A stretch of DNA of 64,000 nucleotides from Patescibacteria group bacterium (GTDB taxonomy: Bacteria; Patescibacteriota; Minisyncoccia; 2-02-FULL-40-12; IGHO2-01-FULL-4-A), in NCBI GenBank assembly GCA_038064015.1, contig JBBTUB010000015.1, positions 7,093 through 71,092 of the forward strand, read 5' to 3'. The position numbers and the translations under genes are program-made. Every line of letters starts with the position of its first letter. The stretch's first letter is position 1. The notes under the pieces were generated by a model that was not told the DNA's origin, searched no databases, and worked only from the letters and a program-made list of their open reading frames with translations. Shown in pieces: positions 7,022 through 63,983 of the stretch.

Positions 7022-7058
7022 CTTTCTTCTTTCTCTTCTTCTTTGGTATACTACATGT

Positions 7059-7886: not shown

Positions 7887-7887
7887 T

Positions 7888-7959
7888 GGGCCGTTAGCTC
7901 AGCGGTAGAGCACCTCATTTGCAATGAGGGGGTCAGCGGTTCAAATCCGCTACGGTCCA
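7888..7959 (+). tRNA. tRNA-Ala (anticodon UGC)
   Basis: Acceptor GGGCCGU/ACGGUCC with G3:U70 identity pair. Anticodon loop UUUGCAA. T-loop UUCAAAU. Confidence 0.85.
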
Positions 7960-7980
7960 CTTCTTCGCTAAAGCTACGAA

Positions 7981-10569: not shown

Positions 10570-11502
10570 ATGTCGCTGAAGCTTAAATTGCTGCTTTTTG
10601 CTGTAGTGCTTGGCGCACTCGGGCTTTCGTATCGTGCGATCTCCAAGGTCAGTCTTGGTCTTCCCGGAAGCCGTAATCTTGCCGCGAACGTCGTGCTCCC
10701 ACTGGATGCTCCTGATGCTGATCACGACGGCATCCCCGATGACGAGGAGGCACAGCATGACACCGATCCCTTCAAGGCCGATAGTGATGAGGATGGATAT
10801 CTTGACGGGGAAGAAGTGCTCTCCGGTTTTAGTCCGACGGAAAAAGACACGAAGAAAGAACAAGAAGAGAAGAAAAAAAAGGGGAACCTCACTCTGACCT
10901 ACCTCGAAAATATTATCGGCGGTGCGCTGGCAGGAGACTTGGATCCCAACAATCTCGAAACCTATACTGATAACTTGAATCTTACCGCGCTGGGGCTCCT
11001 TGATCGACTGCCTGATAAACTAACTCCTCCACCAACACGTCGCACGCTCACGGTCTTGGACAGCGATGATGCCGAAGAGCAAGAATACTTAGCGAACGCG
11101 GCTAAGTTTGTCAATTTTATTCCACCGCTCAATTTGTCATTTGAACGCATGGTCGCAAACACAAAGGACACTGGAGGATCGCAGGCGATCCAAATGTGGA
11201 AAATGCTGAGCACAATGTTTGACACGGCGGGAAGCAGGATTAATGCCCTGCCCGTCCCACAGGAATTCGTTGCTTGGCATGAAGAAGCGATAACGACGCT
11301 CGGGCGCGGCTCACGGCTCTACGATGCGCTTGGAAAGCTCAAAGAAGATCCACTCCTGGCCATGGCTTCACTTGATACGGTCCCGGATTTTATGGAACGC
11401 ATGATGAAGCTGTCCGATGACCTTAATGCCCTCATGATTGCCAAAAATCATTCTCTACGTGTCCACCCTCCAATAATTTTAAATGTCCCAAAGAAAAAAT
11501 AA
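10570..11502 (+). CDS. hypothetical secreted protein with acidic Ca-binding-like motifs (DADHDGIPDDEE / DSDEDGYLDGEE) and Lys/Glu-rich linker
   Basis: N-terminal signal/TM MSLKLKLLLFAVVLGALGLS. Thrombospondin-type-3-like DxDxDGxxDxxE motifs. First gene of the T4SS-like cluster. Confidence 0.45.
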   Translation: MSLKLKLLLFAVVLGALGLSYRAISKVSLGLPGSRNLAANVVLPLDAPDADHDGIPDDEEAQHDTDPFKADSDEDGYLDGEEVLSGFSPTEKDTKKEQEEKKKKGNLTLTYLENIIGGALAGDLDPNNLETYTDNLNLTALGLLDRLPDKLTPPPTRRTLTVLDSDDAEEQEYLANAAKFVNFIPPLNLSFERMVANTKDTGGSQAIQMWKMLSTMFDTAGSRINALPVPQEFVAWHEEAITTLGRGSRLYDALGKLKEDPLLAMASLDTVPDFMERMMKLSDDLNALMIAKNHSLRVHPPIILNVPKKK

Positions 11503-12604
11503 AATTATCATCCCTGCAATGATTGCCGCGATGCTCATCGGGCATGTAGCTGCAACCCATATCCCTACAGCAAAAGCAGTTTTTGGTATTGGGGATATCG
11601 TACTGGATACCAAGGCCTGGTTCGAAACCATCGATCAGAAGCTTGGGGCAAATGCCGCGAAGATTGCCTCGAAAGAAGTTGCCCGCATGCTCCGCACCCT
11701 CATCATCCACGCGATGGACGGCGGGCCGACATTTGTAACGAACTGGCGCAATCACTCGCGCAAGAGCCTGGATGGCGGAGGAACGATCGCTCGCAATCTG
11801 ATCGGAGAAGCGGCGTTTGGCGTCGATGGAGATCCGACGAGCGCCACCCTGTGCAATTTTTTCCGAGATTCAATCGGCAGTAAATTTAACGCGAAACCGG
11901 TTGATAAAGCTTTTGCGGATATCTCACGGGCATATCGCCTTGACGATGCGGGCACGTATAAACTTTTGACCAAGTGCACCTTGCCAACGACAATTTCAAT
12001 TGGCGGAGTACAGAAACCATTTGAGATTAAGAATTTTCAAGACTCTTTTGAGGGAGGATGGCCAGTCTTTGAAAAACTCCTTGAGCCCAACAATAACTAC
12101 TTTGGGGTATTGTCTATCACGGCCGCGGAGATCGGTAAGCAGCGCGAAGCACAAAAGCAATCGGCGCTCAATGAAGCCATTTCAGGTGGGGGATTTCTCT
12201 CGACCATTACCAAGAGTGGGCAAATCAAGAGTCCTGGAAAGCTCATTGGCGATACGGTAAGTAAACAGGTTGGGAGTATTTTCGATTGTCTCAATACCGT
12301 CATTTCATTTTCTTCCCTTGGGGTATGCATCACGGATTTCTCGATAATTGCCAACCAGGTGACTAATTTTCGCAACATCGCCGAATCCGCCGGGCTTCTG
12401 GATGATGAAAAAAGCGACGATGGAGACGCTGGCGATCCCGTGCCAACACCTGAAGTCGGGCCACCGGTCTGTGATAAAGCGTGTGGGGACGCTGCAGAAG
12501 CCACCTGCAACATGGATCCAAGCGTCAATAGCTCTATTCTCTACGAAGTATGCTTTAACCAAACATTTGATGAATGCAAGATAGAAATGTGCCAAGCGCA
12601 GTAA
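11483..12604 (+). CDS. hypothetical secreted protein, Cys-rich C-terminus
   Basis: 373 aa. N-terminal hydrophobic segment IIIPAMIAAMLIGHVAA. C-terminal CDKACGDAAEATCNMD...CFNQTFDECKIEMC. In T4SS-like cluster; may be a VirB5/VirB8-like accessory component, but there is no motif support. Confidence 0.4.
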   Translation: MSQRKNKIIIPAMIAAMLIGHVAATHIPTAKAVFGIGDIVLDTKAWFETIDQKLGANAAKIASKEVARMLRTLIIHAMDGGPTFVTNWRNHSRKSLDGGGTIARNLIGEAAFGVDGDPTSATLCNFFRDSIGSKFNAKPVDKAFADISRAYRLDDAGTYKLLTKCTLPTTISIGGVQKPFEIKNFQDSFEGGWPVFEKLLEPNNNYFGVLSITAAEIGKQREAQKQSALNEAISGGGFLSTITKSGQIKSPGKLIGDTVSKQVGSIFDCLNTVISFSSLGVCITDFSIIANQVTNFRNIAESAGLLDDEKSDDGDAGDPVPTPEVGPPVCDKACGDAAEATCNMDPSVNSSILYEVCFNQTFDECKIEMCQAQ

Positions 12605-12609
12605 TACTC

Positions 12610-15036
12610 ATGAGATCTAAGAGAATAAAAACAGCCATCGTTGCGCTACTCTTGCTCGCGATGCTCATCACACCGTTGGCGAGTGCGCAGGCGGGATCTT
12701 GGACTGATTATGTGACAGGAATATTAAAAGACGCTGCATGTGCAACGCCACTGGCAATTCTCAATCTAGAGGGGTGCGTTCTTCCGCCTCTTCTCAGCAT
12801 CGTAGGAACTATGGTTTCATGGTCAGCTGCTTTGCTGAATTGGCTTTTGGGGGCAAGCCAAGCTTTAGCGGCTCCCGATATCATCAGGTCATCGTGGGTA
12901 ATTTTTAGAGATTTCGTGAATATGTTTTTTATCCTCGCACTGATTATCATGGCATTTGGCACAATCTTCAATGTTAAAAACTATACGTTTAAAGAATTGT
13001 TTCCTCGATTTCTTTTCTCCGCACTGCTCATCAACTTTAGCTTAGAGATTGGCGTGTACGTACTGCGGGTTGCGAACGGTCTGGCTAGCGTATTTCTTGC
13101 CACCATCGGCGATGTCGGTGCCCGCCTTGCTGATGGACTCTTAATAACCAAAATAGCTTCACCGGAAGGCTTATCGGGAACTGCTGCGGCGGCACTAAAA
13201 GGAGTAGCTAGTGGGCCCGGGACTGCGATCACCATGCTTGCGTTCCTCGTATTCCTTATCATCATTTTGGGAACATTTTTGGCAGCGTCGATATTTATTC
13301 TTGCCCGCATTGTGGTCATTTGGTTTCTGCTTATCGTATCGCCGGTTGCGTGGTTTGGGTACACCTTACCGAGCCTACGGGCTGAGACGTGGAGTAAATG
13401 GTGGAAGGCATTTATCAGCTGGTCGTTTTTCCTCCCGACGTACTTATTTTTCATCATGTTCGCCTCTATTTTGTTGAGTGCGAAGAAGACTGTTGGCCTT
13501 ACCGTTGGAGGATATGATAATACTCTTGCAGCCGGGGACTATGCTAAGGCATTCTTCGAGGTTATCGGCCTCACCGATCTCCTCTTTTTTATTCTAGTCA
13601 TTATCGTACTCTTAGGAGGTATCGCAGCGTCTTTTAAAATCGGAGGGCTTGCCGCCAATGGCGCGGGGGCGGTCATGAGCTTTGCGCATGGGAGAGTGAA
13701 AGCGCTCCCAATTTTCCCCACAAAAGGAGCGGGTGGAAAGTGGGTAGGGAGAAGTATCGGCGATTGGGAGGGGGGCGCCAAGCAGCTTGGTTCTAGAATC
13801 CTGAAGTCCGGAATACCGCCAATCCTACCGGGAGTTGGAAAAATTCCCGGTATTCTTCGAGCGTTATGGACCGGGCAAGAGGGGCAAGAAGTGGCGGAGA
13901 AGGCAGTTGGCCAGAGCCTTCAGAGCACGCTTGGGTATGGCAACCTTGCTGAAGGAATGAAAGCTGAAAAAGCCGCGATTGATCATGCGCGTGAGATGCT
14001 TAAGCATGACCCGAAATTCACAGAAAAACTTCGGGACGCAAAATTAAAAGCAGACCTAGGAGAGGGAACTGATCTCATTGATGGGTTCAATAGAATGAAC
14101 TTTGAAACGATTGCCGAGTATCAGGAGCTTGCTGCAAAAGGCATGCTTTCTCCACAAGCATTGCGTGCCTTTGGCACAAAAATCGGTGATCGTAACTCAG
14201 ATGCCATGAAAGACGTGGGAGAGGCTCTTGCAAAATCAAGTTTCGGCGGATGGAAAGAAGAAGATATTTCTGAATTCTTAAAAGCGAAAGAAGATGGGCC
14301 TTACGACATCAAAGGCATGAAGGGCGCTAGAAAGAAAGGCCATGAATGGCTCATTTCTGACGATGGAAAACGAAGAATGCTTGGGCATGAATCTATAACC
14401 CTTGACGTGGTGAATCAAATGGCGAAGGATTATGGACCAGACTCAAACGAGATGCGTGGAGCTCTTCGCGAAATAGCCACAAAGCGAGCTGATCTTGCCG
14501 GAGAGTACAAAGCAATAGCGAAAGCAAAGGCCGAAGGAAGGGAATCCGCCACGGATGCTGAAGTCACAACTGCTACTCAGGAAGTTATTGAAGACAAAAC
14601 AGAACACGAATTAATGAGTATGAGTAAGATCGCTTTTGGGCAGGAGAGATTCATGCAAGCGGTATTAGGAAAACTTGAAAGCCTGCAATCAAAAGTCCCC
14701 ATGGGAGAATACGAAGATAAGTTCGATGCAGGTGCTATGGCAAAATACGTCCAAGGCATGCGGTCAGCGGGCGCGAGCGTCACAGATTTTCAAGAAAAAA
14801 TGCAGGATTTGACCAACGCACTCGGAAAAAATCGTGACGAACTTACGGTAAAAATACGTAACGCAGAAGGTAGAATTGAAGAAAGATCGATACATAACTA
14901 TAAGGAGGCCCTCGATATGGCCGCAAGCGAGAAGAAAGAGTGGGACATCAGGCGTCAAATTGCGGCTGATGAAAGACGTGATGATGCAAAGTTTGCCCGA
15001 GGGACTCGAGGACGCGGACCTAGAAGAACCACATGA
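12610..15036 (+). CDS. TrbL/VirB6-like polytopic inner-membrane protein with long hydrophilic coiled-coil C-terminal extension
   Basis: ATG at 12610, in frame with the 12574 ORF. Signal peptide, then at least 6 TM helices (aa ~60-360), then a ~440-aa Lys/Glu/Ala-rich tail. Architecture typical of TrbL/VirB6 family. Confidence 0.5.
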   Translation: MRSKRIKTAIVALLLLAMLITPLASAQAGSWTDYVTGILKDAACATPLAILNLEGCVLPPLLSIVGTMVSWSAALLNWLLGASQALAAPDIIRSSWVIFRDFVNMFFILALIIMAFGTIFNVKNYTFKELFPRFLFSALLINFSLEIGVYVLRVANGLASVFLATIGDVGARLADGLLITKIASPEGLSGTAAAALKGVASGPGTAITMLAFLVFLIIILGTFLAASIFILARIVVIWFLLIVSPVAWFGYTLPSLRAETWSKWWKAFISWSFFLPTYLFFIMFASILLSAKKTVGLTVGGYDNTLAAGDYAKAFFEVIGLTDLLFFILVIIVLLGGIAASFKIGGLAANGAGAVMSFAHGRVKALPIFPTKGAGGKWVGRSIGDWEGGAKQLGSRILKSGIPPILPGVGKIPGILRALWTGQEGQEVAEKAVGQSLQSTLGYGNLAEGMKAEKAAIDHAREMLKHDPKFTEKLRDAKLKADLGEGTDLIDGFNRMNFETIAEYQELAAKGMLSPQALRAFGTKIGDRNSDAMKDVGEALAKSSFGGWKEEDISEFLKAKEDGPYDIKGMKGARKKGHEWLISDDGKRRMLGHESITLDVVNQMAKDYGPDSNEMRGALREIATKRADLAGEYKAIAKAKAEGRESATDAEVTTATQEVIEDKTEHELMSMSKIAFGQERFMQAVLGKLESLQSKVPMGEYEDKFDAGAMAKYVQGMRSAGASVTDFQEKMQDLTNALGKNRDELTVKIRNAEGRIEERSIHNYKEALDMAASEKKEWDIRRQIAADERRDDAKFARGTRGRGPRRTT

Positions 15037-15500
15037 CATCCTACACCATCTACATCCCCGGAGAAGTTGATCTCCAAGAGATACTCCAAAGCCCATTGAT
15101 CTGGAAAGAATTTCAGCAACGCTGGGCGGTCGGCTCCCCGCGGCTCTCGGATTTGCTTTTCGGAGTCGACACAATGAACAAGATGATCGATATCAGCGTA
15201 GATTTCGAGCTGACCGATGAGCAGACCGCCAATGTATCTCGCGCGGTACGTGATATTGCGCTAGGCTATGTGTATATTGGCGATTTGGCCGCGGTGTTGC
15301 AAAAGCAACTTGGCATTGAGCAAAAGATTGCTTCGGAAATTGGTGGGAGCGCGTTGGAAATCCTCCGTCCCTGCATGGATGAAATCAAGAAAATCCAGCT
15401 CGCACGCTTTCGAAATCGTATCGAGCAAGCGGCGACAAAGCCGATAGATCAGCCGAAGCAGGAAAACACAAGCAATATTATTAACTTACGAAAACCATGA
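15033..15500 (+). CDS. hypothetical cytoplasmic protein (T4SS-like cluster)
   Basis: 155-aa ORF translationally coupled (ATGA overlap) to the VirB6-like gene. No recognisable motifs. Confidence 0.4.
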   Translation: MTSYTIYIPGEVDLQEILQSPLIWKEFQQRWAVGSPRLSDLLFGVDTMNKMIDISVDFELTDEQTANVSRAVRDIALGYVYIGDLAAVLQKQLGIEQKIASEIGGSALEILRPCMDEIKKIQLARFRNRIEQAATKPIDQPKQENTSNIINLRKP

Positions 15501-15805
15501 GATTCCACGTCCCACAATTCATCGAAAAAGAAAACAAAATCATCGGGCCGTTGACACTCCGGCAATTCCTTTGGCTATTGATTGGCGGAGGGCTGTTCTT
15601 GATCGTAAAGATTTTTCTTTCGGGAATGCCTTTGATAATAGCCCTGGTGGTGATCGCCGCACTTTCCCTGGCCATGGCATATGCTAGAATCAATGATGTA
15701 TCCCTGCCGCGCTACACGCTGATGGCATTTAACTTTCTGATCATGGGAAAGCGCTATACCTACACGAAAGAAGAAAACGAAAATATTACATGGCAAAAAA
15801 AATAG
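15497..15805 (+). CDS. VirB3/PrgI-like small two-TM membrane protein
   Basis: 102 aa with two hydrophobic helices (LWLLIGGGLFLIVKIFL / LIIALVVIAALSLAMAY). Lies immediately upstream of and overlapping the VirB4 gene, as in Gram-positive-type T4SS (PrgI/TcpE position). Confidence 0.4.
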   Translation: MRFHVPQFIEKENKIIGPLTLRQFLWLLIGGGLFLIVKIFLSGMPLIIALVVIAALSLAMAYARINDVSLPRYTLMAFNFLIMGKRYTYTKEENENITWQKK

Positions 15806-16425
15806 GCTCTAACACCAAGCAATTTGTAGACATCGCCGATGTGCGAGGCTCATTAGTCCTGCTCAAAGACGGCTCACTTCGCTCAATTATTTCCGTCGAG
15901 TCGGTGAACTTTGATCTCAAGTCTCCTGACGAGCAGACCGCGATCCTGCAGGGATTCCAGAGCTTGGTCAACGCGCTCGATTTCCCGCTCCAGATCGTGG
16001 TCACGTCACGCACGCTCGATCTCAGTAATTATTTAGAGCTCCTGGAAGTTACCCAAACAAAACTTACCAACGAGTTGCTCAAAACCCAACTCACCGAATA
16101 CGCAAAGTTCATCCAAGACCTCACGAAGCTTGCCAATGTCATGGAAAAGAAATTCTATGTCGTCGTACCATATCATGCCATCGAGGCGGTTAAGAATAAC
16201 ACCGGTTTTTTGGGAAAATTAAAAGACCTCTTCTCCGCCACTCGCCATGCTGCGGCGCTCACGGAAGAAAACGAGAAACAATATGGCAAGCAGGTTGAGC
16301 AGCGGGTTGCTGTCGTGTTGTCGGGGCTTTCGCCGCTTGGCGTGAAAACAAAGCTTCTCGAACACGACGAGCTCTTGCAAATCTTCCAGCGCCTCTATAA
16401 CCCGGGACAAGTTCTCCCCACATAA
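15790..16425 (+). CDS. VirB4-family T4SS ATPase, N-terminal domain fragment (split gene)
   Basis: IADVRGSLVLLKDGSLRSIISVESVNFDLKSPDEQTAILQGFQSLVNAL resembles the N-terminal region of Gram-positive VirB4/TcpF/PrgJ-like proteins. Ends TAA at 16423-16425, 5 nt before the ATPase ORF, which is in another frame. Confidence 0.55.
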   Translation: MAKKIGSNTKQFVDIADVRGSLVLLKDGSLRSIISVESVNFDLKSPDEQTAILQGFQSLVNALDFPLQIVVTSRTLDLSNYLELLEVTQTKLTNELLKTQLTEYAKFIQDLTKLANVMEKKFYVVVPYHAIEAVKNNTGFLGKLKDLFSATRHAAALTEENEKQYGKQVEQRVAVVLSGLSPLGVKTKLLEHDELLQIFQRLYNPGQVLPT

Positions 16426-16430
16426 ACCCA

Positions 16431-18179
16431 ATGGATACCACTCCCCAAGAAAAAACAGTTGATGAAATCCTTGCTCCCTCGGCGGTCTCGCTGGGAGCAA
16501 ACGACATGCAAATCGGCGAAAAGTACGTACGGACGATTTTTGTCGCCACCTATCCACGCTATCTCAATACCGGATGGTTTGCGCCCATTATCAACTTAGA
16601 CAAGGAATTTGACGTTGCTTTTTTCATCCACCCGGAAAATTCCGCCGAGGTACTTAAAAAACTTCGCGACCAGCTTGGCCGTCTTGAAGCGGAAGCTATG
16701 GAAGAACAAGCCGCGGGAAAAGTGCGCAACCCGGCACTCCAGACCGGGATTAACGACATTGAGGAACTGCGGGATGCGCTCCAGCAGGGAACGGAGAAAT
16801 TTTATCAGGTCGGCTTGTATATCACGCTGTACGGCAAGACGCAGCAAGACCTGAATGAGCTTGAAAGCTCAATCCGTGGGACCCTCGAAGCCCAGCTTAT
16901 TTACACGAAGCCGGCAACATTCCGCATGAAGGAAGGCTTTGTCTCAACCTTGCCGTTGGGATTGGACAAACTGAACATCCAAACGTCTCTTAATACCGAG
17001 CCGCTTTCTTCGATGTTTCCGTTTGTTTCGTATGATTTATCGCTGGATCGGGGCATTTTGTACGGGATCAACTTGCACAACAATTCTCTCGTGCTGTTTG
17101 ACCGCTTTTCGCTTGAGAATGCCAACACGATCATCCTCGGCAAATCAGGAGGAGGGAAAAGCTACACGATAAAACTTGAGATCCTACGAAGCCTGATGTT
17201 TGGCACCCAGGTGTTCGTGATCGACCCGGAGAACGAATACAAATACCTCTCGGACATGGTGGGGGGGACTTCCGTGCGCATCTCAATCTCCTCTGAAGAT
17301 CACCTCAACCCCTTTGATCTCCCCAAGCCTCGCGCCGATGAGACGCCGGCCGATGTGCTGCGCTCGCACATCGTTGACTTGGGAGGATTCTTTAAGCTTC
17401 TCATGGGAACTATCACTCCTCAAGAAGATGGGATTCTCGACGAGGCGATCCGGCAAACGTATGCTTCACGCGACATCACCGCTACTTCTGATTTCTCGAA
17501 AATCGAACCTCCGCTGATGTCGGATTTCCAAAGCGTCCTCTCCGGCATGGAGGGAACCGAGTCACTGTTGCTGCGAATCAAAAAATATACCGAGGGAAGT
17601 TTTTCGGGCTTTCTGAATAACCCCACCAATGTACGCCTCGATAACCAATTAATAGTCTTTTCCATCCGGGATATGGAAGATGAGCTGAAGCCGGTCGCCA
17701 TGTATCTGGTGCTGAATTTTATCTGGAGCCAGGTTCGCTCGGAAATACGCCAGCGGTTGCTGATCGTTGACGAAGCGTGGCTCATCATGCGCTACGAGGC
17801 GGGAGGACTTTTTCTTTTCAATATTGCCAAACGCGCGCGGAAATACTACCTTGGGCTTACGGCGGTCTCCCAGGACATCCCGGACTTTATGAGTTCGCAA
17901 TACGGCAAGCCGATTATTACCAACTCATCGCTCCAGATCCTCCTGAAACAGTCACCGACAACGATTGATCTGGTAAAAGACACGTTCCACCTCACGGATG
18001 CTGAGAAATTCTTCTTGCTGGAGGCGCAGGTGGGACATGGGCTTTTCTTCGCTGGAAACAGCCATGTGGCAATTCGGATCATTTCCTCCTATGCTGAAGA
18101 TCAGATCATTACGTCCGACCCGCGCCAAATCCTCGATATCGAGGCGGCAAAGCGCGAGCTGGCGGAACAAGCTTCATAA
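16431..18179 (+). CDS. VirB4-family T4SS ATPase, C-terminal ATPase domain (split gene)
   Basis: Walker A IILGKSGGGKS, Walker B LLIVDEAW, arginine finger region, VFVIDPENEY. YVRTIFVATYPRYLNTGWF motif typical of VirB4. Confidence 0.8.
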   Translation: MDTTPQEKTVDEILAPSAVSLGANDMQIGEKYVRTIFVATYPRYLNTGWFAPIINLDKEFDVAFFIHPENSAEVLKKLRDQLGRLEAEAMEEQAAGKVRNPALQTGINDIEELRDALQQGTEKFYQVGLYITLYGKTQQDLNELESSIRGTLEAQLIYTKPATFRMKEGFVSTLPLGLDKLNIQTSLNTEPLSSMFPFVSYDLSLDRGILYGINLHNNSLVLFDRFSLENANTIILGKSGGGKSYTIKLEILRSLMFGTQVFVIDPENEYKYLSDMVGGTSVRISISSEDHLNPFDLPKPRADETPADVLRSHIVDLGGFFKLLMGTITPQEDGILDEAIRQTYASRDITATSDFSKIEPPLMSDFQSVLSGMEGTESLLLRIKKYTEGSFSGFLNNPTNVRLDNQLIVFSIRDMEDELKPVAMYLVLNFIWSQVRSEIRQRLLIVDEAWLIMRYEAGGLFLFNIAKRARKYYLGLTAVSQDIPDFMSSQYGKPIITNSSLQILLKQSPTTIDLVKDTFHLTDAEKFFLLEAQVGHGLFFAGNSHVAIRIISSYAEDQIITSDPRQILDIEAAKRELAEQAS

Positions 18180-18182
18180 TCC

Positions 18183-18719
18183 ATGGATGCACAAGACAAC
18201 ATCTACTCATTCCAACTTGCGCAAGAGCGGCGGCGGGCGCAGCTTCAGGGCGCCGAAGACCAGGAACAAAAACGCCAAGAACAAGCTGATCAGAAGCTTT
18301 TTAGGAGCGTCTTGAAAATTTCGATTATTTTGGACGCGATTGATATCGTATCACTCGGCACGATCGGCTGGTTTATTGGATGTATTGGAGATCTTTACCT
18401 CTACAAAAAAACTGGCCAATCAAAAGCCGGGCGCGCGCAAAAGAAAAAAATCATCATCGCGATCGTGGGAGAGAAAATTCCGATCGTAAATATTTTGCCC
18501 TTGAGGACGATTATGGCAATATTCTCAAACCCCAAAATTATGGCAAAAATTGCTCAGCGACTGCAGACTGCCAGTAAAATTCTCAACGTCGCCGCTAAAA
18601 TCCCGACACCGATCGCCCCAGAGCTCAAAGCCGCATCAAAAGTCGTAAATCTAGCAAATAGGAGAACTCAGATGGGGGCTCGAATGCTTAATACAAATGT
18701 AACTAATAAAGCGGCATGA
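18183..18719 (+). CDS. hypothetical membrane protein (T4SS-like cluster)
   Basis: 178 aa. Gln/Glu-rich N-terminus, one or two TM helices (ISIILDAIDIVSLGTIGWFIGCIG). Lys-rich. Confidence 0.4.
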   Translation: MDAQDNIYSFQLAQERRRAQLQGAEDQEQKRQEQADQKLFRSVLKISIILDAIDIVSLGTIGWFIGCIGDLYLYKKTGQSKAGRAQKKKIIIAIVGEKIPIVNILPLRTIMAIFSNPKIMAKIAQRLQTASKILNVAAKIPTPIAPELKAASKVVNLANRRTQMGARMLNTNVTNKAA

Positions 18720-19783
18720 AAAACATCATGAAATTCATGCTCTTGCTCTTCGTGGTTGCCGGGGTTTCCTTTGGCGCTTCGCTTGGGTTCAGTCAATGGC
18801 GCGACGCGAGGGTCACTGACAACCTGGACGCCAATGTGCTGCGCAGATTCGAAGGCCGAGAACCTCAACCAACGGAAAAAGGCTCGATCAAGCTGACAAC
18901 CGAGGAGGCGAGTTTTTTCCACGTCATACCCAACAAACAAGAAATTCGCTACTATCATGCCCGGACGGGCCAGATCAAATCTCTATCGTCGGCCAGGACA
19001 GCAAAGCCCGCCCTACTCGCCACGATCAAGCCGCGCGCGAGCGATCTCACGTGGTCACCTGATGGCACGGAAATCATCGCATCGTATGGTACCGAGCGAA
19101 TCTATGTGAACGTGACGGCCAGCACGCAGACCAAGCTCGACGCAAATATCCTCAATCCAAAATTCGGACCGGTATCTGATTCGGTTGCCTATCTTTATTT
19201 CGATAAAAAAACAGAGGCCGGGGTGATCAGCATCGCGGACTCGCAGTTTAAGACCTTTAAGAATCTTCTCAAGACACGCCTGAGCACCTGGGAGATCCAG
19301 TGGGCCGATGAGCGCAAACTTTCACTTCTTGCCGCGCCGCCCTCCTCGCGCCTACAATCCCTCTACCTCCTCACCATCGATCAGGAAGGGCTGGATATAC
19401 TCATCGACTCAAAGACTGACATCGAAACGAATTGGTCGCCCGACGGGCAACACCTTCTGTACTCCCGGAAAACGCAAAACGGGATCGAGCTATTCTTACT
19501 TGATCTTGCCACGCGAGCCGAAAAGCCACTCGAAATATCAAGTATGGCATCGAAATGCGGATGGACCTCTGATAGTAGCACGCTGTATTGCGGAGTCCCG
19601 GAAAAAGACTCTGACGATGCTATACTGAAAATTTCGATGACGGGTACTCAAGAAAAAATCTTTGCCCCCGCCGATGCGGGATTTGTAGATGCACGAAATA
19701 TCGTATACATTCCGATCCAAAACGCATTGCTTTTCAAGAACTTCAAAGACGGGCGGCTCTATCTTTTATCGCTGGCCAAATAA
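18716..19783 (+). CDS. secreted TolB-like beta-propeller protein (PD40/WD40-like repeats)
   Basis: Signal peptide MKNIMKFMLLLFVVAGVSFGASLG. Repeated WSPDGTEII / WSPDGQHLLYS motifs typical of TolB/PD40 beta-propellers. Confidence 0.55.
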   Translation: MKNIMKFMLLLFVVAGVSFGASLGFSQWRDARVTDNLDANVLRRFEGREPQPTEKGSIKLTTEEASFFHVIPNKQEIRYYHARTGQIKSLSSARTAKPALLATIKPRASDLTWSPDGTEIIASYGTERIYVNVTASTQTKLDANILNPKFGPVSDSVAYLYFDKKTEAGVISIADSQFKTFKNLLKTRLSTWEIQWADERKLSLLAAPPSSRLQSLYLLTIDQEGLDILIDSKTDIETNWSPDGQHLLYSRKTQNGIELFLLDLATRAEKPLEISSMASKCGWTSDSSTLYCGVPEKDSDDAILKISMTGTQEKIFAPADAGFVDARNIVYIPIQNALLFKNFKDGRLYLLSLAK

Positions 19784-44880: not shown

Positions 44881-44952
44881 GCGCCCGTGGTGAAATGGAT
44901 ATCACGACAGGCTTCGAACCTGTTGTTCCAAGTTCGAGTCTTGGCGGGCGCA
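44881..44952 (+). tRNA. tRNA-Arg (anticodon UCG)
   Basis: Acceptor GCGCCCG/CGGGCGC. Anticodon loop CUUCGAA. T-loop UUCGAGU. Confidence 0.8.
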
Positions 44953-45004
44953 CTTCGGTCTGGTGACCTCAGCACTTCCTCGCTCTCGCTCGGTCGCACC
45001 TAGC

Positions 45005-48897: not shown

Positions 48898-49548
48898 TCA
48901 AAAGAACTTCATTCCAATAGCTTTCTCGATTTTCAATCGTTTCCGTGATAGACAAACAACCCGCTTATCATAATACATTTTTGGCAGTAATTGCAATGAT
49001 TCACCCTTGGCGTACTTGAGCTGATAGGCAGTTCCTTTTCCGCCTTTGCCCGTAAGATGGCCAGAGACTCCAGTATGGAGCTTTATTGTTTCTCTAAGCC
49101 ATTGAATATGCTTGAGGCTGGCCGATACAAACACCGTGTAGAACATGAAGCTTGATCGCCATCGTGGATCCATGTATGAATAAAATGATCCATCTCCATC
49201 AAAGCAACCGCGCAAGAAATCAAAAAAGTATTCTTCGGGAATTTTAAGTGCTCCCATCGTTTTCGACTTTGCAGGCGTCAAACCAATCTCCATCAGATAA
49301 CGATAAAAGAGCACGTCTCCGAACTGAACATGAAAATATTTTTTCTCTTCGGAATATCCCCGAGATTTTTTGCCAATTTTCACCGTGAGTCCCAGACAAT
49401 CAACAAAGTTGTTGGCTTGCTCGATGTCTTTCGTAGTTAGACTCAAATGCCTCCCGTCATTGTAAAGACATCCATCAGTAGTTATGAGGCCTATCGCGTA
49501 GGCGAATTTAGGAGACCATTCTATTTTGATCGTACCTAACGGTCTCAT
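48898..49548 (-). CDS. double-motif LAGLIDADG homing endonuclease, free-standing
   Basis: Motif 1 YAIGLITTDGCL and motif 2 FLRGCFDGDGSF about 100 aa apart. 216 aa. Located between tRNA-Leu and rplS. Confidence 0.75.
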   Translation of the reverse strand: MRPLGTIKIEWSPKFAYAIGLITTDGCLYNDGRHLSLTTKDIEQANNFVDCLGLTVKIGKKSRGYSEEKKYFHVQFGDVLFYRYLMEIGLTPAKSKTMGALKIPEEYFFDFLRGCFDGDGSFYSYMDPRWRSSFMFYTVFVSASLKHIQWLRETIKLHTGVSGHLTGKGGKGTAYQLKYAKGESLQLLPKMYYDKRVVCLSRKRLKIEKAIGMKFF

Positions 49549-50712: not shown

Positions 50713-51040
50713 TGGTTTTTCTCAACTCTCGATTCGCAATTTCAGTAATACTTCTTTGACCCGCGGCAATATCTTGAAGCCTAGTAATCGCATCCGTAAC
50801 ATCCTTGCGATCGTCAGGAGACATTACAGGATCAGAAACGACAGCCTCTCGTAACTTGAATGTTAGTTCGGCTAAATTTTCTATATTTAATAGCCATGTC
50901 AGGTTTTTCTCGATTATTTCATGAACCAAAAACTCTCCTCGCATGAGCGTTCTTTGCTCACCAGAAACTTTGGAGTCGGCGTTGTTGAGTATTCTTTTGC
51001 GGGCTTCATCACCGAAGGCTTCTCTACCAGTTGTCATAGT
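50693..51040 (-). CDS. hypothetical protein
   Basis: ORF start trimmed to MTTGREAF (ATG at 51040) because the longer N-terminus overlaps a tRNA remnant. No motifs recognised. Confidence 0.35.
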   Translation of the reverse strand, partial: TMTTGREAFGDEARKRILNNADSKVSGEQRTLMRGEFLVHEIIEKNLTWLLNIENLAELTFKLREAVVSDPVMSPDDRKDVTDAITRLQDIAAGQRSITEIANRELRKTIESFIK

Positions 51041-51060
51041 GCGCGCTGAGGGATTCGGCT
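51041..51060 (-). repeat. tRNA-Val 3'-end remnant (20-nt exact copy of the T-arm/acceptor 3' half of tRNA-Val(UAC))
   Basis: agtgcgcgctgagggattcg at 51041-51060 is identical to 51183-51202. The remnant does not fold into a full cloverleaf. Confidence 0.5.
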
Positions 51061-51185
51061 TCGACTCTCGGCTCGCCGTCGCTCGCCTCGGTCTAGCCAC
51101 CGCCTCGCGTTATGATGTACTCATCATAACATGCTCCGGCGTTCTCATCCCTCCGCACGTCACGCCGGTGACGTGCTCATCGCAG

Positions 51186-51258
51186 TGCGCGCTGAGGGAT
51201 TCGAACCCCCGACCCTCTCGGTGTAAACGAGATGCTCTAACCGCTGAGCTAAGCGCGC
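51186..51258 (-). tRNA. tRNA-Val (anticodon UAC)
   Basis: Acceptor GCGCGCU/AGCGCGC. Anticodon loop UUUACAC. T-arm GGGGG-UUCGAAU-CCCUC. Confidence 0.85.
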
Positions 51259-51264
51259 CGACAG

Positions 51265-51336
51265 TGGGCGTGCCAGGGATCGAACCTGGGACCCGCGACT
51301 TATAAGATCGCTGCTCTACCGCTGAGCTACACGCCC
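51265..51336 (-). tRNA. tRNA with anticodon UAU (tRNA-Ile2-like, reads AUA)
   Basis: Acceptor GGGCGUG/CACGCCC. Anticodon stem GCGAU/GUCGC (one G:U). Loop CUUAUAA. T-loop UUCGAUC. Confidence 0.6.
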
Positions 51337-51340
51337 ACAC

Positions 51341-53158
51341 CTACCCTATTAAAGCATAGAGCTCCTTTTGTTCCAATGTTTCTTTGGCGATCAACTCTTT
51401 GGCGATGCGATTGAGCACTTCGATTTTTTTCGTGATGACCTCTTTGGCTTTTTTGAGCGCTTTACTCAAAAGCGCCTTAACCTCTACGTCGATCTGGTAG
51501 GCAATTTCATTAGAATAATTTTTTTGATGCCCGAAGTCCCGTCCCATAAACACCATCTCGTCTTTTTCTCCGAATACCGATGGGCCGATTTTCGCCGACA
51601 TACCAAACTCTGTGACCATTCGGTGGGCGAGATCTGAGGCGACTTTCAGATCATTGGAAGCGCCGGTGGTGAGTTCTTTGAAAACAATCTGTTCAGCCAT
51701 GTAGCCGCCCATGAGCACGGCGAGTTCGGCTTCAAATTCCGACTTAGTTTTGAGCATACGGTCTTCAGAGGGAAGCTTCAGCGTATAGCCTCCCGCACGC
51801 CCGCGCGATACGATGGACACTTTGTGGACCGGATCGGCGTGAGGAACCGAGACGGCAACCAACGCGTGGCCCGCTTCATGATAGGCGGTAATTTCTTTTT
51901 CCTTGGGATTCATCACCTTTGATTTGCGCTCCGGCCCAAGCATGACTTTCTCGACCGCTTGAAGAATATCAATTTGCATGATTTGGGATTGATTTTTGCG
52001 AGCGGCAAGGATGGCGCCTTCGTTGATGAGGTTGGCGAGATCAGCGCCGGAAAATCCCGGCGTGCGCTCGGCGACGACGCGCAGATTCACGTCCCGCCCA
52101 AGCGGTTTTTCAGCGGCATGGATTTTGAGGATCGCTTCGCGGTCTTTGAGTGATGGCTCATCCAGGATAATCCGGCGATCAAAGCGTCCGGGGCGCAAGA
52201 GGGCGGGATCCAGAATATCAGGACGGTTCGTCGCGGCCATGACGATCACGGCTGTATCCGTATCGAAGCCATCCATCTCGACAAGAATTTGATTGAGGGT
52301 TTGCTCGCGCTCGTCATGGCCGCCGCCCATGCCCGCGCCGCGATGGCGTCCGACGGCGTCAATCTCGTCGACGAAGATGATTGCAGGCGAATTTTTCTTG
52401 GCAGCTTCAAAGGTATCGCGCACTCTGGTAGCACCAACGCCGACAAACATCTCCACAAATTCCGATCCGGATACGAAGTAAAAAGGGACGTTGGCTTCGT
52501 TGGCGACGGCTTTGGCCAAGAGGGTTTTGCCGGTTCCGGGCGTGCCGACCAGGAGGAAGCCGCGCGGCATCCGGGCACCGAGGCGCTTGAACTTGGTCGG
52601 GTCGCGCAAAAACTCCACGATTTCGACGACCTCTTCTTTCGCTTCAATTAAGCCGGCGACGTCTTTGAAGGTAACTTTCTTTTTGGTAATATCCGTGCCG
52701 GCAAGGCGAGCTTTTGATTTTCCAAAATTCATCGCTCCCATCGCGCCTTTTTGGGCTGAGCGGAACATGAACCAAAACAATAGCCCAATGAACAGAAACG
52801 GCAGGACGATTTGGACGATGGCCGGAAGATAGCCAAAGAAGCCTTCTTCCTTGATCGTGATCTCTATTTTTTTCAGCTGGGCTTCGTCAGCGCCGAGGTT
52901 TTTGAGTGTTTCGCTGGGCGCGGCATTGGGCTCGGCTTTGACGGTTTCCTTGCCCTTATCGTCTCGGAGCTCAACGGTAAAGGTGCCGCCCTGCACCGTG
53001 AGCGTCTTCACGGAACCTTCGTTGATTTGCGTGATGAGCTTGCTCAGCGAGATTTCTTCTTTTTTGCCGCCTCGATCCGGGCTGAATCCCGCGATCAGGC
53101 TGGAGATCACGAGGAGGACCACAAAAATGAGGAGGATGTACTTAAGAAGTGACTTCAT
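51341..53158 (-). CDS. ftsH: ATP-dependent zinc metalloprotease FtsH
   Basis: N-terminal TM pair. AAA+ Walker [17 protein letters not shown]. Zn motif HEAGHALVA. Confidence 0.9.
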
Positions 53159-54350
53159 CTAATTGCTTGGAGATGGTCAAAAGCATTTTATGATCTTTGG
53201 GATCAAGAGAAACGATGGCGACCGGAATCTGGGCGCCAACTTTGACGACTTCTGAAGGTTTTTTATTATCAAATTCCGCCAATGGCACAAGGCCGGTGAT
53301 TTCTTCGTCGAGGCTTACCAGGGCGCCATAGTTGGTCAGTTTCACCACTTTGCCCGTCAGATTCTGACCGACGCTGTATCGCTCGGGAGCCTTTTCCCAC
53401 GGGTCGGTTTTGAGCGCTTTGAGCGAAAGTGAAACCTTGCCACCTTCAATACTGATAATCTTCGCCGACACCGCTTGTCCGCTGGCCAAGAAATCACGAG
53501 GATTGTCGATGATTTTCCAGTCAATCTCCGAAATATGGATTAAGCCTTCAAGCTTGGTGGTCGAGGCCGCTTCTTTTGGCTTCAAAAGTACGAATGCTCC
53601 AAAGTCGGTGACGTCCGTGATCGTGCCTTCGACAATCTCGCCGAGCGTAAATTTCGCGAGTTCTTCTTGAATGTTTGCTTCCCCGATCGCTTTTTCTGAA
53701 ACGATCAATCGGTTTTCATCCTCGGAAAAATCAAGGATTTTGACTTGAAACTCAGCATTGCGGAATTTTTGGAGCGCCTGGACGATCTTGGTCGTATCAC
53801 CGCCTTCGACTTTCGGATAGTGGTCGGGAGACAGCTGTGAGAGTGGCAAGAAGCCCTGGACGCCGTTGAGCTCCACAATCAACCCACCCTTATTAATATT
53901 AACGATTTTCGTCGAAATTATTTCACCTTTGTCTTTCTTTTCCTTGATATCTTCCCAGGCGGTCGTGCGCTGGGCGCGCTTGAGGGAGAGATCGCGATAG
54001 CCAAGCCCGTCTTCATCCTCAATATCAAGAAATACCGCCGAGATTTGCTGGCCGGCCTGGAGTGCTTTTTGCAACGAGGTATTGTCGTAAAATTCTCCCG
54101 GGTAGACGATGCCGGTGCCCAAGGATCCGAGGTCGATCATGACCGCGTTCTTGCTAACGCTCAAAATTTCTCCCTGGACGACACTCCCCGGCTTGGGAAG
54201 GTCGATGTCAGTTTTCGCCAGTAGGTCTTTCATAGAAAGACCGGGCTCCGTAGGTAAAATTATAGGATCCATAAGTTTCAAGAGTCTATCATGTTTTTTT
54301 TGTGCTGGCAATCCTGGTATACTGGGATCATGAAATCGTGGCACGCGCAT
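53142..54350 (-). CDS. rpsA: 30S ribosomal protein S1-like (multiple S1 RNA-binding domains)
   Basis: At least four S1-fold repeats (e.g. GSVVQGEILSVSKNAVMIDLG, GEIISTKIVNINKGGLIVEL, GEIVEGTITDVTDFGAFVLL, GQNLTGKVVKLTNYGALVSL). Confidence 0.75.
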   Translation of the reverse strand: MRVPRFHDPSIPGLPAQKKHDRLLKLMDPIILPTEPGLSMKDLLAKTDIDLPKPGSVVQGEILSVSKNAVMIDLGSLGTGIVYPGEFYDNTSLQKALQAGQQISAVFLDIEDEDGLGYRDLSLKRAQRTTAWEDIKEKKDKGEIISTKIVNINKGGLIVELNGVQGFLPLSQLSPDHYPKVEGGDTTKIVQALQKFRNAEFQVKILDFSEDENRLIVSEKAIGEANIQEELAKFTLGEIVEGTITDVTDFGAFVLLKPKEAASTTKLEGLIHISEIDWKIIDNPRDFLASGQAVSAKIISIEGGKVSLSLKALKTDPWEKAPERYSVGQNLTGKVVKLTNYGALVSLDEEITGLVPLAEFDNKKPSEVVKVGAQIPVAIVSLDPKDHKMLLTISKQLDEVTS

Positions 54351-55191: not shown

Positions 55192-55821
55192 CTATTCTGG
55201 TTTTCCGAGATTCACCCACGTAGTATTCCAGATCCACGAATTGCCGTCCTTATCGAGCAATGCGGTGTGATGCCACTGGACAATATCATCAGCCGCAATC
55301 GGGGCATCAAAACTTTCCTCGCGAACCCATGTTTTTGAGTTGAAGTACCGGTACCAGGCGTCGCCCTTGTTGGTCAGGACATGGATCACATTCCAGTCGC
55401 CGTCAACGAAGGCGATATCCCCGCCGCCGGTAATGCCTTGCGGGCCCTGCGGTCCGGCATCGCCTTTTTCGCCACGTTCGCCCTGATCACCCGTAGCGCC
55501 CTTCTCGCCTTTAGTACCTTGGGTTCCGCTAGCCCCTTTTTCACCGGCAACACCCTTATCGCCCTTGAGACCCTGCGGTCCGGTAGCGCCTCGGTCTCCC
55601 TTAGGACCCTGCGCGCCTTGCGCATTCCAACTCAAAAGGGCATCGTTTTTTGTGCACTTTGCCGCCGTGAAGCCGTTCTTACCTACCACAACTGCCGTCC
55701 CATTTTTTCGGATGCACACACTGATCGTGCTATCCGCTGCGCGAGCGTGGTGAAAAGCCGCGATGCCTCCGACTGCCAATATACCACCACTTAACAGTCC
55801 AATAAGAAAATATTTTTTCAT
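55192..55821 (-). CDS. secreted collagen-like triple-helix repeat protein
   Basis: Signal peptide. About 23 uninterrupted G-X-Y triplets (GAQGPKGDRGATGPQGLKGDKG...GPQGPQGITGG). C-terminal globular domain. Confidence 0.7.
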   Translation of the reverse strand: MKKYFLIGLLSGGILAVGGIAAFHHARAADSTISVCIRKNGTAVVVGKNGFTAAKCTKNDALLSWNAQGAQGPKGDRGATGPQGLKGDKGVAGEKGASGTQGTKGEKGATGDQGERGEKGDAGPQGPQGITGGGDIAFVDGDWNVIHVLTNKGDAWYRYFNSKTWVREESFDAPIAADDIVQWHHTALLDKDGNSWIWNTTWVNLGKPE

Positions 55822-61773: not shown

Positions 61774-63090
61774 ATGGATCGGCGCAAACTTATCTACATC
61801 ATCGGGGGAGTGCTCGGAGGAATCCTACTCCTCGTACTTTTTTTTGTGCTGGTGGGTGGTGATGCGCCGAAGGCTCAAAAAGCCAATCTTGCCATGTGGG
61901 GGCCGTTTGATGAGCCGAGCTACTACGCTCAGGTTATCCGCGACTACCGAAAAGTAAATCCCAATATAAGTGTCACCTACACTCAGATTCCCGCCCAGGA
62001 CTATGAACAGCGCCTTATTAGCGCGTTTGCTGCCGGCAACGGCCCTGACATCTGGTTGATGCACAATACTTGGCTGCCCAAGCATCAGGATAAGATCCAG
62101 CCGTTGCCTACCAAAATTAAGGGTGTGAAAGAGCCACTATTTACTTTCAAGAATTTTCAAGATCAATTTGTTGATGTTGCAGTGGCAGATCTCACGAGAG
62201 GGGAAACTATATACGCCCTGCCGCTCTATATTGATACCTTGGCCCTTTACTACAACAAAGATCTTTTTAATACCGCGGGAATTGCTACGCCACCTCGGAC
62301 GTGGGAAGACTTTGTTCGAAATGTTCCCCTCCTGACCTCACGTGATACTGCTGACAATATTGTCCGGTCCGCCGCGGCGATCGGGACCTCCAAAAACATC
62401 AATCGCTCTACCGATATACTCATGCTCCTCATGCTCCAAAGCGGAGTACGTATGACCGATAAAGATAATGCCGGAGCAACTTTTGCAAAACAGGTGGACG
62501 GGCTTAATGTAGGAGAGTTGGCAGTGCAATTTTATACTGACTTTGCCAATCTATCCAAGCCTGACCGCTACACCTGGAACGATCGGCAAAAGTACTCGAT
62601 CGATGCGTTTGCCGATGGGAATACCGCGATGATGCTCAACTACTCTCATCACATCCAAACGCTGCGAGCCAAAGCGCCCCGATTAAATTTTGGCATTGCC
62701 CCGGTCCCTCAGCCCGAGAAAGCGACTATTGGGGTTAATTTTGCCAATTACTGGGCGCCTACGGTAGCAAAGCAGTCAAATTATGGTCTCGAAGCGTGGC
62801 AGTTTCTTATCTATTTGTCGGGTACCGACGGAGCTATTTCCTATCTCGATGCTTCTCTTCGTCCCACGGCTCGGCGCGACTTGATCGAGCGACAAAAAAA
62901 TGACGCAGATCTTGGCACGTTTGCTCACCAAGCGCTCACGGCGCGATCGTGGTACCAAGTGGACAATGTCTCGATTGAGACGCTTTTTGCCAAGCTGATC
63001 GATGATGTGAATTTCAATCGGGCCACGATCCGAGACGCGCTCAAGGAAGCGGAGTCACAAGTGAGTGTCATCATGAGTAAATCGCCATGA
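61774..63090 (+). CDS. extracellular solute-binding protein (ABC transporter substrate-binding, family 1-like), TM-anchored
   Basis: N-terminal TM. ...LAMWGPFDEPSYYAQVIRDYRKVNPNISVTY... typical sugar-type SBP N-terminus. Confidence 0.65.
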   Translation: MDRRKLIYIIGGVLGGILLLVLFFVLVGGDAPKAQKANLAMWGPFDEPSYYAQVIRDYRKVNPNISVTYTQIPAQDYEQRLISAFAAGNGPDIWLMHNTWLPKHQDKIQPLPTKIKGVKEPLFTFKNFQDQFVDVAVADLTRGETIYALPLYIDTLALYYNKDLFNTAGIATPPRTWEDFVRNVPLLTSRDTADNIVRSAAAIGTSKNINRSTDILMLLMLQSGVRMTDKDNAGATFAKQVDGLNVGELAVQFYTDFANLSKPDRYTWNDRQKYSIDAFADGNTAMMLNYSHHIQTLRAKAPRLNFGIAPVPQPEKATIGVNFANYWAPTVAKQSNYGLEAWQFLIYLSGTDGAISYLDASLRPTARRDLIERQKNDADLGTFAHQALTARSWYQVDNVSIETLFAKLIDDVNFNRATIRDALKEAESQVSVIMSKSP

Positions 63091-63983
63091 AAAGCATAGG
63101 TACTAAAATTTTCCTTGTTTTTTTTCTCGGGCTTTTGTTTTTTAGCATGGCAGTGCCGGCACAAGCGGCACTGGTAACCTGCGGACTCAAGTCGCAGGAT
63201 GTCAAAGAAACATCCGAGATCGAAGGAGCCTGTACCATCTGCGACATACTGAAGCTTCTCAAAAACATCGTCGATTATATTTCATTTACGCTGGTACCGA
63301 TTTTTGCCGGAGTGATGATTCTCGTGTCTGGCTTGATCATAGTTCTTGGCGGTGCAAAGCCCGAGATGGTCACGCAAGGGAGATCCATGCTTACCAACAC
63401 GCTCATTGGTGTTGCGATTATTTATAGTTCGTATATGATCACGAACTTCATCATCAAATCCGTGGCCGGTGAGAGCGATGTGGCCACGAGTTGGTTTAAG
63501 CTTGATTGCCAAGTTCCTGTTCCTGCTCCTAGTTCGACGCCGTTGCCGGGCCTTGGCGAGCTTTGCAATGATTTACCCAAGCTTGCTCAAGCGAACCGCG
63601 CCCGGTATCCGAAGGGGAATGCTCCAGAGCTCAACACGCTGATCAGTTGTATAAAAGATAAGCTCCCAGGGAAAGATTTTGGAAGTCAGGCAACCTATGA
63701 CTCCAATGAGATATGCAATTACCTTCGCGGAGATGAGCGTTTTTGCGGGACAACCTGCAACCATCGACGAAGCTCATGCCATTATGGCGGGACGACGGGA
63801 AGAGATGGCGCACTTGCGGTGGATTTTGGGAACGAGAAAATTGGAGATGAGATTATCGCCGCGGCCAAAGCGTGTGGTGCGAAAAGCGCCCGGTGTGAAA
63901 CGCCAACCGGTGATTCTGCAGCATGCTCCGCAGTGGGTGTGAATCATATCCACATCAGTGCCGCGAGTTGCGACACGAATTAA
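63087..63983 (+). CDS. hypothetical secreted/membrane protein with signal peptide + two-helix hairpin (VirB2/TrbC-pilin-like topology) and Cys-rich C-terminal domain
   Basis: Signal peptide ...AVPAQA. CxxxC (CTICD). Two hydrophobic helices separated by a short loop. C-terminal domain with multiple Cys. Confidence 0.4.
   Translation: MKSIGTKIFLVFFLGLLFFSMAVPAQAALVTCGLKSQDVKETSEIEGACTICDILKLLKNIVDYISFTLVPIFAGVMILVSGLIIVLGGAKPEMVTQGRSMLTNTLIGVAIIYSSYMITNFIIKSVAGESDVATSWFKLDCQVPVPAPSSTPLPGLGELCNDLPKLAQANRARYPKGNAPELNTLISCIKDKLPGKDFGSQATYDSNEICNYLRGDERFCGTTCNHRRSSCHYGGTTGRDGALAVDFGNEKIGDEIIAAAKACGAKSARCETPTGDSAACSAVGVNHIHISAASCDTN

Follow-up and report, generated by a model that had tools for sequence, protein, structure and literature searches.

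A tRNA-Ile gene with the anticodon UAU, located beside ftsH in the genome of a Patescibacteria group bacterium, is quite likely to read AUA codons by direct pairing of U34 with A, replacing the role of tRNA-Ile2(CAU) and the lysidine synthetase TilS, which together read AUA in most bacteria. The gene specifies a genuine tRNA of canonical form that is conserved and subject to structural selection, and the tilS/CAU arrangement has been displaced at this locus; the tRNA is proposed to be the sole or principal decoder of AUA. Comparison of the 64,000-nucleotide stretch of contig that carries the gene (hereafter the window) with 80 FtsH loci from GTDB species representatives, each scanned for tRNAs, indicates that a large bacterial group probably reads AUA without lysidine modification.

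ARAGORN places a tRNA-Ile gene (anticodon TAT) on the minus strand of the window at 51264-51336, and the Rfam model RF00005 covers 51265-51336 of the same strand with 70.2 bits (gathering score 29, E = 2.8e-13). The first-pass annotation of this DNA had placed the gene at 51265-51336 and had read its loop as CUUAUAA with anticodon UAU; the coordinates are correct, the strand, which it left unstated, is minus, and ARAGORN, Rfam and the fold agree on loop and anticodon, ARAGORN returning the same anticodon (tat) and a cloverleaf rather than any different assignment. The minus-strand sequence, GGGCGUGUAGCUCAGCGGUAGAGCAGCGAUCUUAUAAGUCGCGGGUCCCAGGUUCGAUCCCUGGCACGCCCA, has a length of 72-73 nt and canonical form according to ARAGORN and Rfam, with an anticodon loop of 7 nt (C-U-U-A-U-A-A) and A73 as its discriminator; ARAGORN, the fold and the sequence show neither an intron nor an encoded CCA. 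The cloverleaf fold has a stability of -31.2 kcal/mol (z = -3.15), equalled by 0 of 200 shuffled sequences. Assignment of the isotype by similarity to E. coli tRNAs was dropped, there being no significant match to the E. coli isoleucine tRNAs (the best match of any kind is to tRNA-Val, E = 0.1).

Ten tRNA genes were found in the window by ARAGORN, none of them with a CAU anticodon. Among them is tRNA-Ile(GAU) (6950-7022, plus strand; ARAGORN, Rfam and alignment with the UAU tRNA), the major isoleucine tRNA, which reads AUU and AUC and, with the UAU tRNA, completes isoleucine decoding of the AUN box; in the alignment, the acceptor stems of the two tRNAs resemble each other. On the plus strand at 6950-7960, this tRNA-Ile(GAU) and a tRNA-Ala(UGC), the usual pair of the 16S-23S spacer, are split by an ORF of 828 nt (7059-7886) belonging to the LOG or 'possible lysine decarboxylase' family, and rRNA genes were not detected in any part of the window.

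The tRNA-Ile(UAU) gene begins 4 nt past the TAG stop codon of ftsH (51341-53158, minus strand, 605 aa, 791.9 bits to TIGR01241, with Pfam domains Peptidase_M41 and AAA) on the same strand. The first 17 nt of ftsH are shared with an S1-domain (rpsA-like) gene (53142-54350, minus strand; gene call, Pfam S1 139.8 bits, NCBIfam S1 models), which the public assembly calls as 376 aa with an end near 54272. A tRNA-Val(UAC) gene (51185-51258, minus strand; ARAGORN, Rfam) sits 6 nt downstream of A73 of tRNA-Ile(UAU), and the Ile(UAU)-Val pair, with a UAC or GAC anticodon in tRNA-Val, recurs in loci L003, L006, L012, L018, L025, L258 and L327. A promoter scan located 0 sigma-70-like sites between ftsH and the tRNAs; thus, as the simplest reading, the tRNAs are probably co-transcribed with rpsA-ftsH and cut out by RNase P. 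The window also contains dnaA, dnaN, yidC, jag, gyrA, ruvABC-type genes, nusA, trigger factor and rplS, which identify it as core chromosome around the replication origin and not a mobile element. Exact protein matches locate this DNA on contig CAYIGI010000003.1 (70.9 kb) of the MAG GCA_964362975.1 and in several assemblies from Hainich groundwater filtered at 0.1 um.

The 3' half of tRNA-Val(UAC) has a degenerate second copy at 51038-51080 (minus strand), 146 nt downstream of the intact gene; the two share an exact repeat of 20 nt (51038-51057 and 51184-51203), and the partial copy runs right up to the ATG (51037) with which the following ORF begins. The spacer of approximately 105 nt that follows tRNA-Val matches no Rfam family and includes two perfect hairpins (CACGTCAC...GTGACGTG and GTTATGATG...CATCATAAC). 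An integration or duplication event at tRNA-Val could have left the partial copy and spacer behind.

Several other features of the window and of the contigs that extend it may be recorded here. A free-standing LAGLIDADG-type ORF (48898-49548, minus strand) lies between rplS and a tRNA-Leu(GAG) gene, and two more LAGLIDADG ORFs (256-870 and 1619-2278) are present on L088, which extends approximately 10 kb upstream of the window; the latter two could be rRNA intron endonucleases, which are typical of CPR bacteria. A set of genes resembling those of type IV secretion or conjugation is located at 10570-19783 and 63087-63983 (both plus strand) and continues into L084 (10919-12087); it includes a VirB4/TraG-type P-loop ATPase (16431-18179), a PrgI-family protein (15497-15805), a TSP3-repeat protein and, at the right end of the window, four TrbC/T4SS-pilin paralogues in a row. 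A protein of 209 aa with collagen triple-helix (G-X-Y) repeats (55192-55821, minus strand) is encoded next to a CAP/YkwD-family secreted protein and a choice-of-anchor-J or CBM-like protein of 659 aa, and the three genes may constitute a small surface-protein cluster.

A tRNA-Ile(TAT) gene is present near ftsH in 26 of the 80 fetched loci (the copy in L063 is cut by the contig end), all of them from Patescibacteria with Parcubacteria/Paceibacteria-type labels (Nomura-, Taylor- and Jorgensenbacteria, Minisyncoccales, Paceibacterota), and near ftsH in none of the Chloroflexota loci of the set. Approximately 17 of the clade's tRNA-Ile(UAU) genes are no more than 1 kb downstream of ftsH on the same strand, often with tRNA-Val next to them. 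The first-pass annotation had described a genomically encoded UAU anticodon as rare, which is true of characterised bacteria; in this lineage, by contrast, all 27 sampled clade members, including the window, bear the gene near ftsH. Relatives of its FtsH place the organism within the Patescibacteria (CPR), with the nearest species representative only 67% identical.

Twenty-six complete tRNA sequences (the window and 25 orthologous loci) were aligned. Within this alignment, 99.2% of cells are paired, 17 of 21 pairs have undergone compensatory double changes, a number reached in 0 of 500 shuffles, and loop positions 32-37 (C-U-U-A-U-A) are invariant while the stems vary. The covariation and the invariant loop indicate selected, functional genes, so that, with the ARAGORN and Rfam results, the pseudogene alternative named by the first-pass annotation is rejected. 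A search of metagenomes with a degenerate UAU-tRNA pattern gave at least 120 loci in which phage and cellular tRNAs are mixed, and which serve as a replication sample only; ftsH adjoins the UAU tRNA in 19 of 120 among the matches listed, other Hainich contigs included.

The larger UAU subclade has a conserved order of tmRNA, ftsH and tRNA-Ile(UAU), the tmRNA gene being found approximately 0.5-3 kb upstream of ftsH in L031, L038, L046, L052, L060, L061, L066, L073 and L077, on the same strand as ftsH in L066 and mostly on the opposite strand in the others. L066 also has, by ARAGORN, a tRNA-Ser(ACU) gene (10145-10232, minus strand) adjoining tRNA-Ser(GCU); the ACU anticodon, starting with A, is very rare in bacteria.

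In the best neighbour-joining tree of FtsH (81 sequences, 609 columns), all 27 bearers of the UAU tRNA form one clade, with the unplaced taxon L048 and a Moranbacteria-like group having tilS-ftsH as its neighbours. Bootstrap values are 100% for the larger subclade of 19 taxa and 69% for the subclade of 8 taxa that includes the window. Strict monophyly of the UAU bearers is found in the best tree, yet the two subclades are joined in just 41-42% of bootstrap replicates (67% if L048 is allowed inside), and therefore a single origin is not established: it is the result of the best tree, and two origins would be possible on this one protein.

The neighbourhood of ftsH differs between the UAU clade and TilS-bearing CPR bacteria, in which the gene order is S1-tilS-ftsH. 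An ORF with a PP-loop lies directly upstream of ftsH in nine other CPR loci (Moranbacteria, Kazan, Doudnabacteria and Peregrinibacteria among them) and six Chloroflexota loci, and the ten such ORFs that were scanned are TilS according to the NCBIfam model TIGR02432 (156-206 bits, cutoff 93.6). The S1-domain gene and ftsH have nothing between them in the window, in several members of the clade and in the majority of the other CPR loci; the ORF directly upstream of ftsH in the window, considered as a candidate tilS, is the S1-domain protein by Pfam and NCBIfam. A TilS HMM built locally from the PP-loop ORFs upstream of ftsH had no match in the ftsH loci of the UAU clade, and this HMM and the PP-loop motif found nothing in the six-frame translation of the window. 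Near ftsH, tilS is present in 0 of 27 members of the UAU clade versus 9 of 26 other CPR (Fisher p = 7e-4, a statistic that ignores kinship). The HMM likewise detected no TilS in 1.7 Mb of further UAU-anchored DNA (approximately 2 Mb of UAU-linked DNA in total). The contig extensions L084 and L088 (approximately 7 kb and 10 kb beyond the window) contain neither TilS nor tRNA genes; the window and these extensions cover about 80 kb of the organism's DNA, with no TilS match and no CAU tRNA. A tRNA with a CAU anticodon is absent from the ftsH loci of the UAU clade as well.

Three of the TilS-bearing loci have a CAU tRNA downstream of ftsH (L034, 86.5% identical to an E. coli tRNA-Ile with E = 1e-15; L009, approximately 80% identical; L016, 81% identical), and the E. 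coli gene matched by those of L034 and L009 has the anticodon CAT and adjoins mug; it is presumably ileX. The window tRNA occupies the same slot after ftsH that tRNA-Ile2(CAU) occupies in these TilS-bearing CPR relatives. The order tilS-ftsH-tRNA-Ile2(CAU) in these relatives corresponds to ftsH-tRNA-Ile(UAU) in the UAU clade, and an in-place change of C34 to U34 with subsequent loss of tilS is the most economical history. Descent from Ile2(CAU) or Ile1(GAU) could not be decided by sequence identity, since the values are too close for clear discrimination (0.64-0.66 to CAU tRNAs of the Ile2 type versus 0.60 to Ile-GAU), and identity alone is no proof; position favours descent from tRNA-Ile2(CAU). 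Loss of tilS, which the first-pass annotation had named, beside a distinct modification system, as one of two possible implications of the anticodon, gains circumstantial support, with the CAU slot taken by a UAU tRNA and tilS missing from S1-tilS-ftsH.

In four Chloroflexota loci (L033, L041, L056 and L078), the tilS ORF upstream of ftsH has, directly before its start or overlapping it, a tRNA gene with a CAU anticodon, and enzyme and possible substrate may thus be neighbours; the CAU tRNA of L056 resembles an initiator tRNA, and therefore not all of these are tRNA-Ile2.

An unlikely alternative, though one to be taken seriously, is that tilS and tRNA-Ile2(CAU) are located elsewhere in the genome and the UAU tRNA is an extra reader of AUA, as tilS and tRNA-Ile(TAT) coexist in Lactobacillus plantarum and L. 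casei (PMC3575796). The DNA covered is less than about 10% of the genome, and 17 other CPR loci, like many Chloroflexota loci, have neither tilS nor a UAU tRNA near ftsH, which shows that the position of tilS is not fixed. Against redundancy, tilS is gone from its conserved slot between the S1-domain gene and ftsH, the UAU tRNA holds the slot of tRNA-Ile2(CAU), and the approximately 2 Mb of UAU-linked DNA searched is devoid of TilS matches. When 5.8 billion proteins were compared with a TilS profile, 7282 matched, and the named proteins among the best 120 of these belong to Moranbacteria, Peregrinibacteria or generic group labels, with no named lineage of the UAU clade, a result that is consistent with absence of TilS but weak. 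Redundancy for a single codon would also be less likely in the strongly reduced genomes of CPR bacteria.

Position 38 of the tRNA varies within the clade: among the 26 aligned tRNAs it is A in the window, L003, L005, L012 and L025, C in 19 others and U in two. Since C38 is present in each of the two FtsH subclades, the change seems to have recurred, whereas A38 is kept in all tRNA-Ile2(CAU) genes of the TilS-bearing relatives. This recurrent loss of A38 suggests, as a hypothesis only, that the anticodon loop may have been re-tuned after the switch from CAU to UAU.

The variation at position 38, in suggesting a tuning of decoding, is also one argument for a second and rather doubtful alternative, in which a modification of U34 (pseudouridine, as in the psi-A-psi anticodon of eukaryotes, or something new) restricts pairing to A, as a distinct system in place of lysidine. 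A plain U34 is able to pair with G by wobble, and in Mycoplasma mobile avoidance of AUG requires a special property of the ribosome; moreover, an RluA-family pseudouridine synthase is encoded two genes downstream of the tRNA in the window. This RluA-like gene, however, lies close to the tRNA in just 2 of the 27 loci, those of the window and its closest relative, and scores as a generic enzyme of the RluA subfamily (RluD-like) acting on rRNA or tRNA, so it was rejected as a dedicated, linked modifier of U34. No other conserved candidate gene accompanies the tRNA, no gene for modification of U34 was found in the window, and the sole characterised bacterial case has an unmodified U34.

That the gene is a tRNA-Ile(TAT) of a phage or mobile element, or a decaying pseudogene without a decoding role in the host, is very improbable. 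Phage tRNA-Ile(TAT) genes have the same anticodon and are common in environmental sequence, with at least 120 generic UAU-pattern tRNA genes on viral contigs, so that tRNA genes with UAU are not in themselves rare among sequences, and partial tRNA genes such as the 3' half of tRNA-Val downstream can occur at integration sites. The window tRNA, in contrast to these genes in their viral context, is set in core chromosome; its synteny with ftsH extends over 27 genomes and 19 independent metagenome contigs, versus 0 of the 120 viral contigs listed; none of the 120 viral matches listed matches it beyond approximately 20 nt; and its covariation pattern is that of a selected tRNA. The absence of ftsH adjacency and of any close match among the viral sequences listed leads to rejection of a phage origin.

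The codon AUA is in use, as the first-pass annotation had proposed checking: in 59 non-overlapping ORFs of the window there are 141 AUA codons (7.2 per 1000), 9.3% of all isoleucine codons. Its meaning was read from the alignment of FtsH from 81 genomes: for each codon, the columns in which it is used by members of the clade were compared with the residue of the outgroup. In ftsH of the clade, the 249 AUA codons have a profile like those of AUU and AUC, and at columns conserved to at least 80% they coincide with isoleucine 49 times, valine 8 times, leucine 3 times, phenylalanine once and methionine never, while AUG in the same test coincides with methionine 81 times. Thus, AUA means isoleucine, which supports the isotype assignment. 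At equal GC content, the share of AUA among isoleucine codons is higher in the UAU clade than in TilS-bearing CPR by +0.108 (p = 3e-4, again ignoring kinship), which would be the expected outcome if AUA is less constrained once its decoder is directly encoded. Reassignment of AUA, for example to methionine, with the tRNA charged with another amino acid, is scarcely credible: lack of significant similarity to E. coli isoleucine tRNAs does leave the isotype resting on the anticodon, but the conserved FtsH columns, the A73 discriminator and the acceptor stem like that of tRNA-Ile(GAU) in the window all speak for isoleucine.

The preferred reading, in which tRNA-Ile(UAU) has taken over AUA, suggests the following mechanism. 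An ancestor of the Patescibacteria clade would have changed C34 to U34 in its tRNA-Ile2 gene in place and would have lost tilS afterwards. The tRNA would be transcribed with rpsA-ftsH and processed, CCA being added post-transcriptionally, and would be charged by an isoleucyl-tRNA synthetase (IleRS) that accepts U34, which by analogy with M. mobile might have Arg or Lys where the E. coli enzyme has Trp905, or might be of the eukaryote type. Misreading of AUG through U-G wobble may be limited by competition from tRNA-Met, by features of the ribosome or anticodon loop, or by a modification of U34. No ileS is present in the window or any fetched locus, where matches to class Ia synthetases are to LeuRS and ValRS only; the IleRS candidates given by KMSKS and jackhmmer screens of all fetched DNA turned out to be RecG, LeuRS and ValRS.

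Encoded UAU anticodons without tilS have precedents in bacteria. M. mobile, Bifidobacterium and Neorickettsia have no tilS and use tRNA-Ile(UAU) (PMC3575796; PMC8450103); published cases amount to nine species in three clades (PMC3575796), with counts of 19 species in tRNADB-CE and 17 genomes in the tRNAscan-SE 2.0 survey (PMC8450103), and tilS has been described in about 98% of bacterial genomes. M. mobile (Taniguchi et al. 2013, PMC3575796) resembles the present case in its encoded UAU, its canonical tRNA without an intron, AUA as isoleucine and a reduced genome. Its U34 is unmodified, Arg865 of its IleRS (E. coli Trp905) confers recognition of UAU, and its ribosome rejects AUG (PMC3575796); these properties were shown by experiment in M. 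mobile. TilS is absent genome-wide from M. mobile but here from a conserved locus, and M. mobile is a single species within the Mollicutes, while here every sampled member of a large Patescibacteria clade has the UAU tRNA. Bifidobacterium and Neorickettsia are similar in having tRNA-Ile(UAU) in place of tilS and tRNA-Ile2(CAU) at the level of a lineage, although the absence of tilS is read here at the locus, and they rely on a eukaryote-type IleRS (PMC3575796), a horizontally acquired type-2 enzyme (PMC3575796; PMC8450103).

The canonical system of tRNA-Ile2(CAU) with TilS shares with the window tRNA its codon, its S1/tilS/ftsH/tRNA neighbourhood and the position after ftsH (L034, L009 and L016), but the window tRNA has its TAT anticodon in the DNA and no TilS in the neighbourhood. 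In Bacillus subtilis, the tRNA-Ile1(UAU) suppressor of a tilS deletion demonstrates that one anticodon change to UAU can make TilS dispensable (Fabret 2011; Kohrer 2013, PMC3919564); it was a laboratory mutation of tRNA-Ile1(GAU), while here similarity is indecisive and position points to tRNA-Ile2(CAU). Direct reading by UAU instead of by a modified C34 is also found in archaea (Nanoarchaeum, an ultra-small episymbiont like the bacteria of this lineage, and Korarchaeum) and eukaryotes, which are other domains of life, and the eukaryotic tRNA has an intron and psi-A-psi, unlike the window tRNA, which has no intron.

Full-text literature searches returned no paper linking lysidine or TilS with CPR or Patescibacteria. 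The use of tRNA-Ile(UAU) without tilS is already known in bacteria, and the Patescibacteria lineage, for which no published report was found, is notable for the clade-wide extent of the arrangement. It is somewhat more probable than its opposite that a class-level radiation of Patescibacteria (Paceibacteria-type: Nomura-, Taylor- and Jorgensenbacteria, Minisyncoccales and relatives) no longer uses the lysidine system and reads AUA by tRNA-Ile(UAU) with co-adapted devices for fidelity, which may be an IleRS variant, a property of the ribosome, the recurrent change of A38 to C38 or a new modification of U34.

The window also encodes a tRNA-Arg(UCG) (44881-44953, plus strand), which is found in L003 as well (12747-12819). 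In most bacteria, CGU, CGC and CGA are read by tRNA-Arg(ACG) deaminated by TadA, and tRNA-Arg(UCG) is known from Mollicutes that have lost TadA. Beside tRNA-Ile(UAU), this gene may be another instance in which the genome decodes without a tRNA modification.

TilS is regarded as an essential, nearly universal and bacteria-specific enzyme and has been discussed as an antibiotic target. If a major radiation of Patescibacteria is indeed without TilS, the known lysidine-free bacteria, now a handful of species, would include a large clade that far exceeds every other natural group of this kind, and tRNA-Ile(UAU) together with the absence of tilS would be a simple genomic marker for that clade. Its members would then offer many natural replicates of how U34 avoids AUG and how IleRS accepts U34. 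The finding agrees with a more general tendency of reduced genomes towards decoding that spares modifications, of which the tRNA-Arg(UCG) of the window may be another example.
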